Shown one piece after another: positions 7,544-9,058 of a DNA stretch of 64,000 nucleotides; the first letter of the stretch is position 1; each line of letters opens with the position of its first letter. Under the pieces are notes generated by a model. That model did not search any database, was not told the DNA's origin, and worked only from the letters and a program-made list of their open reading frames with translations. A program made the translations under genes and the position numbers. The stretch comes from Staphylococcus phage S6, in sequence record LC680885.1; one strand, 5' to 3'.

Positions 7544-9058
7544 ATGAAATGGATAATGTTTAAATTTAACAATGTAGAACGTATTAACTTAATAGGAAAT
7601 AGAAAGATGAATTATATTGAATTACAAGAATCTTTATATACTTTAAAACCTAAGTTTAAAAAGATAGTAAAGAATGATAAAGGTAATTTTGTATTATTAT
7701 TTTCAGACGGAAGAAAAGAATATATTAGTGATACAAATGTAGGAAGTATGTTTAGACCTAAAATGATGATAGTTAATAGCGTTGATGATTACAATTTATT
7801 TGATGGGTATAGACAAGCATATAGTTTTGAAATAGATAGTATAAATTCTTTAAACATTAATTTAAGAAAAATTATTGATAAAAATTACACATTTAATATT
7901 ATCACTGAAAAATTTAGAATCTATGAAGAAGACAAAATACTCAATTTAATAAAATTGAAATCAACGACAGAAAATGATAAAGATATATTTAAAATTGAAG
8001 GTATTTTAAAAATTAAAAAAGATTTGATTAATATTGAAGAATTAGAATTAATTAAAGATATTTTAAATGATTGCCTAACGTCACAAGAAAAATATGAATA
8101 TATATTAAATTCATTAGAACTTTTAATAAAATCTATAGATTTAAAAAATAGAAATGTTAATACATTTGACACTTTCTATATACCTAAATCGGATGGTACT
8201 AAAAGAGAGATTAATTCACCTATAGAAGAAATTAGATCTATTCTTAAAAAGCAAGCTAGTATATTAAATGCTATTTTAGATCTTAGAATTGATAAGTATA
8301 ATTTAGATGAAAATATTATAGCTTATAGAGATGGTAAATCAATTAAAGATAATGCAGATTATCATAAAGAAAATAAAACTATTATCAAATTTGATATTAG
8401 TAAATTCTTTGATAACTGTCATTTTGATTATTGGAAAGAAAATCTCTTCTTTAGTTTTAAAGATGAAGATTATGTAATGGAAAGATTTGAAGATTATATG
8501 AAAGATTTATTATTTAGAAAAGATAATAAAGGATTATATATGGGTAGCCCATTATCACCGGCAGCATCTAACTTAATTATGGTTCCAGTAATGAGATATA
8601 TTAATAATATATTAAGTAAATTTAAAACTGATATTAAAGTTACCGTTTATGCAGATGATATAACTTTCTCAAGTAATGAAATCAACGATGAATTTAATCC
8701 TAAAAGACTAAAAAGTATGGTCAATCATGCTTTTAAAGTCAATGGTTTAAAATTTAAACTTAAAGAAGAAAAATCATTAGTGATGAAAAATCATAAGAGA
8801 AAAATAACAGGATTGTCTGTAAATCATAATGATGAACCGACTATCAGTCAAAAAAGATATAGACAGTTAAGAACAGTTATCCATCTATTAAATAACGGAG
8901 TAGAATTTAAAAAAATTAAAGGATTTGAAACACCACTACAATTAGTATCATTAATTAACTACTATTTAGATGTTGATACTACTGAAAAAGTTAAAAGATT
9001 AATGGACAATAATGAAAAAATATTTAATGAATTAAAGAAAGAAGCTGGGGTGAATTAA
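7544..9058 (+). CDS. reverse transcriptase (retron / group II intron-like class) with ~200 aa N-terminal extension; likely true start ATG 7556
   Basis: RT motifs found: RT1 [18 protein letters not shown]2 [14 protein letters not shown]4 [19 protein letters not shown]5 [14 protein letters not shown]6 [15 protein letters not shown]7 [10 protein letters not shown] (retron-like xTGxxV). The C-terminal ~80 aa is helical (thumb/X-like). Upstream is the conserved TAGGAGATGAAATGGATAATG translation-initiation block. Confidence 0.85.

Follow-up and report, generated by a model that had tools for sequence, protein, structure and literature searches.

A retron-type reverse transcriptase and a tandem array of predicted msr-msd RNA units in Staphylococcus phage S6 and related jumbo phages

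We analyzed a reverse transcriptase (RT) gene and its surroundings in a 64-kb window of Staphylococcus phage S6 (LC680885.1); all positions count from the start of this window. The original prediction for the locus was a free-standing RT at 7544-9058 with a retron/group II-like core and a motif-free N-terminal extension of about 200 aa, preceded by a structured-RNA array and followed by a translationally coupled gene. The open reading frame (ORF) at 7544-9058 on the plus strand is real, while the start of the protein is more likely ATG 7556, which yields 500 aa and leaves 7544 as an alternative start. ATG 7556 is preferred because it is preceded by an extended Shine-Dalgarno (SD) sequence, AGGAGATGA at 7539-7547, with a spacing of 8 nt, because the leader in front of it recurs and because GenBank annotators chose this start for the RT orthologues. 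The leader, AGGAGATGAAATGGATAATG, is nearly identical before four genes including the RT gene (7539-7558, 19437-19456, 20352-20371 and 51613-51632, plus strand), which suggests either a common extended SD/spacer module or a conserved upstream mini-frame with the sequence MKWIM. The features of the RT gene are the following.

7556-9058, plus strand: retron-type RT, 500 aa, with a helical C-terminal thumb
7556-8155, plus strand: N-terminal orphan domain of the RT, aa 1 to about 200
8183-8212, 8390-8416 (FDISKFFDN), 8543-8572, 8648-8659 (YADD) and 8804-8821 (ITGLSV), plus strand: RT motifs
8351-8365, plus strand: NADYH, the retron motif NAxxH, aa 266-270
8804-8812, plus strand: ITG, the retron motif xTG, aa 417-419

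All five motifs quoted in the prediction were located in the protein, and NAxxH, which it had not mentioned, was added. The Pfam domain RVT_1 covers aa 213-425 (E=8e-21), and the protein has a pI of 9.0. The first 200 or so residues matched no model in Pfam, NCBIfam, PADLOC or PHROG, as foreseen, and this domain has no detectable fold relative. A role of the RT as a virion protein was rejected; it is not among the 15 proteins detected in a shallow virion proteome of the related phage DC4.

The RT was assigned to a clade with profile hidden Markov models (HMMs), PDB sequence matches and motifs. With the PADLOC models, the best 25 of 34 matches were all retron RT models (top RT_II-A, 2.7e-39; also Ec107-like and XIII); no DRT or UG model was among these 25. 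The top three matches in NCBIfam were retron models, the best being retron_St85_RT with 139.9 bits. Retron RT models scored 133-140 bits versus 55.8 bits for the group II RT model. The six best matches in a PDB sequence search were retron RTs (E 1e-18 to 6e-13), versus 6e-5 for GsI-IIC, and the NAxxH and xTG motifs align to the same motifs in a solved retron RT. According to Mestre 2020 (PMC7736814), two motifs define retron RTs: NAxxH in region X, which lies between RT2 and RT3, and a VTG triplet in region Y, which lies in RT7 and directs the RT to the msr. In 12 family members, with identities as low as 27%, none of the residues N266, A267, H270, T418 and G419 varies, and neither does YADD; the resemblance of ITGLSV to the retron xTGxxV signature had been recognised correctly. 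By these sequence criteria the RT belongs to the retron clade and not to the group II, diversity-generating retroelement (DGR), Abi/UG or CRISPR-RT clades. The original "retron/group II-like" description can be narrowed accordingly. The full-length family is tiny, with about 18 clusters among 5.8 billion proteins.

The weak match to the group II RT model is one of the points in favor of a different explanation, in which the protein is a trans-acting RT/maturase for group II introns of the phage and the upstream RNAs are unrelated small RNAs. The group II intron in the window (31679-33532) encodes an endonuclease and not an RT, and three of the four group II introns of the Listeria jumbo phage LPJP1 are ORF-less (PMC12350094). 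However, 55.8 bits is far under the 300-bit cutoff of TIGR04416, the E value of GsI-IIC (6e-5) compares with 1e-18 for retron RTs, and no maturase (GIIM) match appeared in Pfam at E up to 1. The RT always adjoins the array, 22 kb from the intron, whereas true phage intron RTs group with those of group II introns and have an X domain (PMC12350094). A group II domain V/VI was not found within 5500-10500. Neither clustering with group II RTs nor a cognate intron RNA around the gene was therefore seen, and the absence of a maturase domain and the position outside an intron are as originally described. We regard a trans-acting maturase as highly improbable.

The intron in the window is itself a composite element on the plus strand. 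Rfam places group-II-D1D4-5 at 31679-31821 and domain V/VI at 33449-33532. The intron splits a gene, of which a 578-aa ORF ends at 31670 and an apparent continuation lies at 33586-33894. Its own ORF (32097-33446, 449 aa) contains repeated CxxC zinc-finger modules and a C-terminal Vsr/DUF559-like endonuclease motif and has no RT. It fits the class "HEG inside a group II intron" (HEG, homing endonuclease gene) of PMC12350094.

The majority of the phage RTs known to date belong to DGRs, as also stated by Korn et al. For the S6 enzyme, however, there is no pair of template and variable repeats (TR/VR) anywhere in the window, the retron signatures are present, and the msd segments described below have no match elsewhere in the phage. 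In the whole genome of the related phage MarsHill, Korn et al. found neither Avd nor a TR, a VR or an initiation of mutagenic homing (IMH) site. A DGR can practically be dismissed, in agreement with the prediction.

The upstream array, which had been given as flanking context only, is real. Judged from sequence and predicted structure, the 1.2-kb spacer upstream of the RT holds five retron-style msr-msd units in tandem, at 6376-7448. The 12-mer ATGAATACGTAT occurs in five exact copies, versus 0.73 expected, all within 6467-7268 and nowhere else in the 64 kb; it is the part of a 7-bp hairpin, HP2, that contains the loop and the inner stem. All units share one order of elements: a unit-specific segment a1 of 10-19 nt, a junction G, a linker, hairpin HP1, HP2, an AU-rich spacer, a long and GC-richer variable stem, UUUG, and a segment a2 that is the complement of a1. 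The junction G is conserved in A(A/T)AG directly after a1. The 8-nt loop of HP2, TG[A/T/G]ATACG (UGNAUACG), is invariant across all Staphylococcus jumbo phages, while its stem varies in at least five mutually compensating forms. The units, which abut head-to-tail, are as follows.

6376-6603, plus strand: predicted msr-msd unit 1; a1 6376-6390, G 6391, a2 6584-6603 preceded by G 6583
about 6396-6415 (HP1), 6461-6482 (HP2, loop TGAATACG at 6468-6475) and 6484-6582 (variable stem), plus strand: hairpins of unit 1
6635-6828, plus strand: predicted msr-msd unit 2; a1 6635-6648, G 6649, HP1 6654-6671, HP2 6672-6693, UUUG, a2 6814-6828
6830-7040, plus strand: predicted msr-msd unit 3; a1 6830-6843, G 6844, HP1 6850-6866, HP2 6868-6889, a2 7024-7040
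6907-7018, plus strand: variable stem of unit 3, two-armed and GC-richer; UUGG before a2
7040-7210, plus strand: predicted msr-msd unit 4; a1 7040-7053, G 7054, HP1 7060-7076, HP2 7078-7099, UUUG, a2 7199-7210
7212-7448, plus strand: predicted msr-msd unit 5; a1 7212-7225, G 7226, HP1 7232-7249, HP2 7251-7272, a2 7435-7448
about 7308-7316 with about 7408-7415, plus strand: basal helix of the long variable stem of unit 5

Several results indicate that these units are folded RNAs. We aligned 19 distinct units from four lineages. In the proposed structure 92.2% of the cells are paired, versus 41-48% after a shift of the partners by 1 to 3 columns. Compensatory changes on both sides were found in 23 of 27 pairs (a1/a2 13/14, HP1 6/6, HP2 4/7). 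The covariation score is 0.566 versus about 0.1, and none of 500 shuffles reached the observed values. When RNAalifold was run without a supplied structure on ten orthologues of unit 3, it recovered a1/a2, HP1 and HP2; with ten orthologues of unit 5 it recovered the basal msd helix with compensatory changes. Fold z-scores against shuffles were -9.64 for unit 3 and -7.35 for unit 4, and the variable stems proved much better folders than shuffled sequences.

The closing stems are specific to their units. Cognate a1/a2 duplexes are stabler than non-cognate ones in nearly every unit: -12.2 versus -4.1 to -7.0 kcal/mol in unit 2 and -15.2 versus -3.1 to -6.1 in unit 3, with a cognate value of -11.8 in unit 5. 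A covariance model of the msr found exactly five matches in the 64 kb, all in the array and on the plus strand (40.3, 65.7, 73, 77.8 and 72.3 bits for units 1 to 5), and three matches in the metagenomic locus L012, which was outside the training set. Unit 1, with the lowest score, has an insertion of about 40 nt (6417-6459) between HP1 and HP2 in the window and in phages PALS_2, DC4, Madawaska and LY01; unit 1 of MarsHill and SA1 is without it and fits the consensus unit. Unit 1 may be diverging or decaying.

The geometry matches the retron msr-msd RNA of Mestre 2020 in its predicted elements, namely an a1/a2 stem, a G after a1, msr hairpins and an msd stem. Units closed by a1/a2 with a G right after a1 occur in all five window units, in nine Staphylococcus phages, in the metagenomic loci L012 and L013 and in LPJP1. 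By analogy with retrons the conserved G probably acts as a branch point. HP1 and HP2 are present and co-vary, with an HP2 loop that is constant within a lineage and differs between RT lineages; they are candidates for msr stem-loops recognised by the cognate RT.

Inverted repeats can also be protein-binding palindromes, and the repeats could be DNA-level elements such as iterons, operators, promoters or cruciforms, for example of an origin or regulatory region, that lie beside the RT incidentally. A sigma-70-like sequence, TTTATA-17-TATAAT, overlaps HP1/HP2 in units 3-5, and both strands give a similar minimum free energy. However, the putative -10 hexamer is lost where the stem changes (TGAAAT, TAAAAT, TATATT), whereas long-range a1/a2 pairs some 150-220 nt apart co-vary. 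G.U pairs outnumber A.C pairs in the array by 13 to 2, and therefore a single-stranded RNA of the plus strand is favored over duplex-DNA cruciforms. The array is, furthermore, bracketed by a phage promoter and a terminator, and it accompanies the RT family in unrelated genomic contexts (L013, LPJP1). Together, these results make an incidental DNA element very unlikely.

Next we consider the relatives of the locus. In tblastn searches the window belongs to the Staphylococcus jumbo-phage group, which comprises AR9-like phages with uracil-substituted DNA (U-DNA). RT identities were 95.6% for PALS_2, 93% for DC4, 88% for Madawaska, 87.5% for MarsHill, 86% for LY01, 61% for SA1 and 54-56% for Machias, PB50 and AH12; LPJP1 was 36% identical in the RT part only. 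All nine Staphylococcus jumbo-phage records have the same synteny and five units, except for Machias, PB50 and AH12 with four; unit 4 is the one missing there. The metagenomic loci L011 (RT 45%) and L012 (RT 52%) again show this synteny, each with three units; the HP2 loop of L011 is UG[A/U][A/U]AGCG (UGWWAGCG). L013 (RT 37%) has another genomic context and at least six units, which are built around another conserved hairpin and have a1-G ... AAUG-a2 as their closing elements (for example ATATTATTTAATAAA followed by G, with AATG followed by TTTATTAAATAATAT). LPJP1 has at least four units with the HP2-like loop UGUAAUCG; here too the cognate a1/a2 duplexes (-10.5 to -13.9 kcal/mol) are stabler than the non-cognate ones. 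The a1-G and UUUG-a2 junctions keep their geometry in the Staphylococcus phages, L011, L012, L013 and LPJP1. The HP2 loop tracks the RT lineage (UGNAUACG, UGWWAGCG and UGUAAUCG), as expected of a protein-RNA pair. The sequence comparison thus indicates that a unit array is a trait of this RT family in Staphylococcus jumbo phages, LPJP1 and metagenomic relatives. The number of units per RT differs from the retron norm of one: five in the window, four or five in Staphylococcus phages, three in L011 and L012, at least four in LPJP1 and at least six in L013.

In LPJP1 a degenerate extra unit, GACTGATTAATAATCAGT at 9405-9440, lies between units 2 and 4 without an inner loop or a cognate closing stem; it looks like a decayed unit. 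Scans of IMG/VR with the HP2 core gave single chance matches, and a two-core pattern gave none.

The array, the RT and the gene behind it look like one operon, and the sequence elements that point to this layout are listed below.

6344-6366, plus strand: recurring phage promoter box TTAAATATATATAAT(attaatga), consensus TTAAATATATATWAT(aanaWTG), about 10 nt before a1 of unit 1
about 7482-7513, plus strand: intrinsic terminator in the gap between array and RT, 14-bp stem and T-run
9060-9884, plus strand: ORF274, 274 aa, acidic (pI 4.9), translationally coupled (TAA-T-ATG)
about 9902-9923, plus strand: terminator closing the RT-ORF274 operon

The promoter box occurs with 0-2 mismatches at six more plus-strand sites (11913, 22248, 33894, 48674, 61361 and 63105), each 65-85 nt upstream of a ribosome binding site and an ORF. 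Four of these sites are intergenic; those at 33894 and 63105 begin in the last 1-4 nt (stop codon) of the preceding ORF. In SA1, Machias, L011 and L012, too, the array is headed by a conserved copy of the box. Korn et al. reported an early-promoter motif upstream of 29 MarsHill genes, and the box at 6344 is probably this motif. The TGAATACG box was also tried as a general phage promoter and rejected; it is confined to the array.

Three terminator-like sites were found versus 0.3 expected, and those of the RT region lie only at about 7482-7513 and 9902-9923. The first is likewise annotated in Machias. Only some 25 nt separate it from the SD sequence, which leaves no space for a promoter, so the RT and ORF274 would need read-through. 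The terminator inside the operon would then be an attenuating one.

ORF274 starts 1 nt after the stop codon of the RT, which agrees with the predicted coupling. Its position is kept in all Staphylococcus-type relatives, with 21 invariant residues. Identities to the window copy are 87, 86, 43, 33, 32, 27 and 26%, and it evolves faster than the RT. An exhaustive profile search found five relatives, all of orthologue size, among 1.84 billion representatives. The predicted structure (predicted local distance difference test, pLDDT, 50) is unusable. The position of ORF274 makes it a candidate retron partner or effector. A sister lineage (L013, LPJP1, L014 and L135) has, instead of ORF274, a common orphan protein of 576-850 aa after the RT; these proteins are 25-39% identical with a conserved HCCF...GGAA core. 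Such a swapped accessory gene beside a conserved cassette of non-coding RNA (ncRNA) and RT would mirror the modularity of bacterial retrons (Mestre 2020). No linked effector of a recognised class (ATPase/HNH, NDT, Toprim, TIR, protease, 2TM and others) was found at the S6 locus or in the sister-lineage partner. A small ORF pair upstream of the array was rejected as a member of the module; the window pair showed no homology to L013 or LPJP1.

Further observations concern the neighborhood of these genes. A hairpin family of about 31 nt, GAGGTAATGRCA-N7-TGTCATTACCTC, usually followed by TAATATAT, has six intergenic copies on the plus strand (6284-6314, 19389-19419, 33915-33945, 34631-34661, 41838-41868 and 63126-63156). 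Some copies lie directly 3' of a promoter box (33894, 63105), and others appear to terminate the preceding gene (6284). The hairpin is a candidate terminator, 5' untranslated region element or REP-like repeat. Seven paralogous small genes with conserved C-terminal ends (...EYK...FK*) stand in tandem at 58500-61900 (plus strand) with a spacing of about 470 nt. In L014 a second, divergent RT-like ORF (5194-7014, 606 aa) lies about 3 kb downstream of the first RT-partner pair and is possibly a duplicated module.

We propose, with a probability of about 70%, that the locus is a phage-borne retron-type element in which one RT serves a tandem array of template RNAs for the multiplex synthesis of msDNA (multicopy single-stranded DNA). 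The promoter at 6344 would drive a single transcript across the five units. Most transcripts would stop at about 7482-7513, and those that read through would be the mRNA for the RT and ORF274. Each unit folds alone, as the covariation shows, with its own a1/a2 stem enclosing HP1, HP2 and the GC-richer stem. The RT may recognise the invariant HP2 loop UGNAUACG, probably via the xTG of region Y and possibly via its N-terminal domain. By analogy with retrons, it would prime on the 2'-OH of the G after a1 and copy from the UUUG adjoining a2. In each cell this would produce five distinct branched msDNA hairpins; RNase H, for which the phage has a gene of its own, would trim them. With dTTP replaced by dUTP in the infected cell, these msDNAs would contain deoxyuridine (dU). 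A precedent for the processing of several units exists in engineered retron ncRNA arrays, in which a single RT processes the ncRNAs of one transcript (Gonzalez-Delgado et al., PMC10370050).

Several points weigh against this proposal, which is a computation from sequence. Every retron-subtype HMM score of the RT is below the curated family cutoff (139.9 bits against a cutoff of 235 for the St85 model NF038233; 104.2 against 450 for the Ec67 model NF038237); the RT is therefore a separate retron-like clade outside the curated subtypes. No known msr or other RNA family in Rfam matches the array. Duplex folding helped to choose the register of a2 that was used for the covariation count, although the conserved UUUG anchors this register. 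Unit 1 has its insertion and a weak score, the LPJP1 array is downstream of the RT operon and not upstream, and L135 (a 241-kb contig with 50% GC) has a structured spacer of 396 nt with no evident array. The partner proteins are orphans: ORF274 has no Pfam, PADLOC, NCBIfam, PHROG or PDB match, and the sister-lineage protein has none in Pfam, PADLOC or PDB. Nor do the msd segments give a clue to a target. They show only chance matches of up to 13 nt to the window and match no other place in the phage records, and for this reason they were rejected as antisense or donor sequences. They also diverge quickly between lineages, and templated targeting is therefore unlikely.

The subthreshold HMM scores and the extra domain of about 200 aa, which has no fold assignment, are also what speaks for a retron-derived RT and array that make no classical multicopy msDNA. 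The RT might bind the units mainly as scaffold or regulator RNAs and synthesise cDNA only upon a trigger, as type VI retrons do, or it might make a different product, such as the long, concatemeric or homopolymeric cDNA of some DRT systems. Type VI retrons are described in a preprint (10.1101/2025.10.22.683967) as lacking constitutive msDNA accumulation, and the strong terminator between array and RT would make the RNA far more abundant than the enzyme. On the other hand, the catalytic YADD and the retron-specific NAxxH and xTG are invariant, and there is no DRT or UG model among the best PADLOC matches. The a1-G / UUUG-a2 priming geometry is also retained in every unit, and it is hard to see what purpose it would serve if synthesis is not primed from a 2'-OH. 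We consider a function without classical multicopy msDNA unlikely and prefer multiplex msDNA synthesis.

The role of such msDNAs is the least supported step of the proposal. It would most likely be a conflict function, either as counter-defence decoys or as a sensor/effector system with the acidic ORF274. One form of the decoy idea concerns the uracil in the phage DNA: multicopy dU-containing hairpins might early in infection titrate or inhibit host enzymes that target DNA, above all uracil-DNA glycosylase (Ung). The basis is a coincidence of the RT family with phages that lack a recognisable Ung inhibitor. The inhibitor Ugi was found only in Bacillus U-DNA phages, and among U-DNA phages the RT family is present (tblastn) only in Staphylococcus and Listeria jumbo phages. 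A dedicated survey found no UngIn candidate in these Staphylococcus and Listeria phages and called this a paradox (PMC10303552). The position of the array behind a recurring, probably early, phage promoter is consistent with the idea. Nevertheless, neither Ugi nor the RT is present in phage phiR1-37, the correlation comes from only two or three independent lineages, a decoy substrate is a weak block for a turnover enzyme, and 80% of the phage genes are without known function, so that one could encode a protein inhibitor of Ung. For these reasons we find this role distinctly improbable; if true, it would resolve the published paradox of the missing Ung inhibitor in these phages.

The variable stems of the array (6519-7375) also contain classical restriction sites (GGATCC twice, CCTAGG, GAGCTC, CTGCAG twice, CAGCTG, and also GATATC and TTCGAA). 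Seven of the 31 6-bp palindromes with at least four G/C in the window lie in the 1.7% of its length taken up by the array, an enrichment of about 13-fold that is confounded by local GC content and stem symmetry. With this confounding, and with sites that are not clearly conserved in SA1, restriction-site decoys are kept as a lead only.

The bare finding is not new. Korn et al. (2020/2021) reported for the orthologue MarsHill gp206 an RT with an N-terminal domain of about 200 aa and a 1.2-kb upstream spacer, hypothesised that the spacer holds "the" ncRNA, and identified no linked effector candidate. In the literature searched, we found no description of natural tandem msr-msd arrays, no functional study of an S6-type RT and no link between retrons and Ung; within that literature, retron arrays were previously known only as an engineered design. 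New here are the arrangement of the ncRNAs as an array, the finding that this arrangement is kept across jumbo-phage lineages, the layout of the operon and the orphan partners conserved along with it.

The accepted picture of a retron is a single RNA with a single RT and a single effector, which together protect bacteria from phages. Here the retron machinery is on the side of the phage, in strictly lytic giant phages, and the template RNA is multiplied 3- to at least 6-fold. This raises the questions of what use a virus has for several abundant small DNAs and how one RT can serve many templates. The unit-specific closing stems combined with a common recognition loop are a design rule that could be borrowed for retron engineering. 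The N-terminal domain of the RT and the two orphan partners are new protein families linked to reverse transcription. Finally, the restriction of the RT family to Ugi-less U-DNA phages leads to a concrete, if speculative, hypothesis for an open problem of these phages.

A comparison with known systems places the S6 element as follows. MarsHill gp206 (87.5% identity) is this gene in another phage and agrees with it in domain split, 1.2-kb spacer and synteny; the present account goes beyond it with the five units and their architecture, the promoter and terminator, the coupled ORF, and the family in Listeria and metagenomic jumbo phages. Group II intron/G2L and DGR RTs have the RT palm and fingers fold (RVT_1) in common with the S6 enzyme. 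Unlike them, the S6 locus is without a maturase X domain, a surrounding intron RNA or TR/VR, and their profile scores are much weaker.

Bacterial retrons (Mestre types I-XIII, such as Ec86/Eco1, St85/Sen2 and Ec78/Eco7) resemble the element in the NAxxH, xTG and YADD motifs of the RT, in the a1/a2 duplex, the G after a1, the putative msr hairpins and long msd stem, and in an ncRNA that lies upstream of the RT in one operon with a tightly linked accessory gene after it. They have one ncRNA, whereas the S6-type family has 3 to at least 6 units per RT. In further contrast to bacterial retrons, the S6 element is carried by a strictly lytic U-DNA jumbo phage and not by a bacterium or prophage, its RT has the additional N-terminal domain, and a terminator stands between array and RT. 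The HMM scores fall under every curated subtype cutoff, and none of the accessory proteins (274 aa and acidic, or 576-850 aa in the sister lineage) has a match among the known retron effectors. The engineered "multitrons" (PMC10370050) likewise place ncRNAs head-to-tail on one transcript with one RT, and there each ncRNA gives a distinct RT-DNA. Multitrons are synthetic, built from Eco1 for multiplex recombineering, while the S6 array is natural; unlike them, it has unit-specific a1/a2 stems, which would limit mis-pairing, and msd segments without homology to a genomic target.

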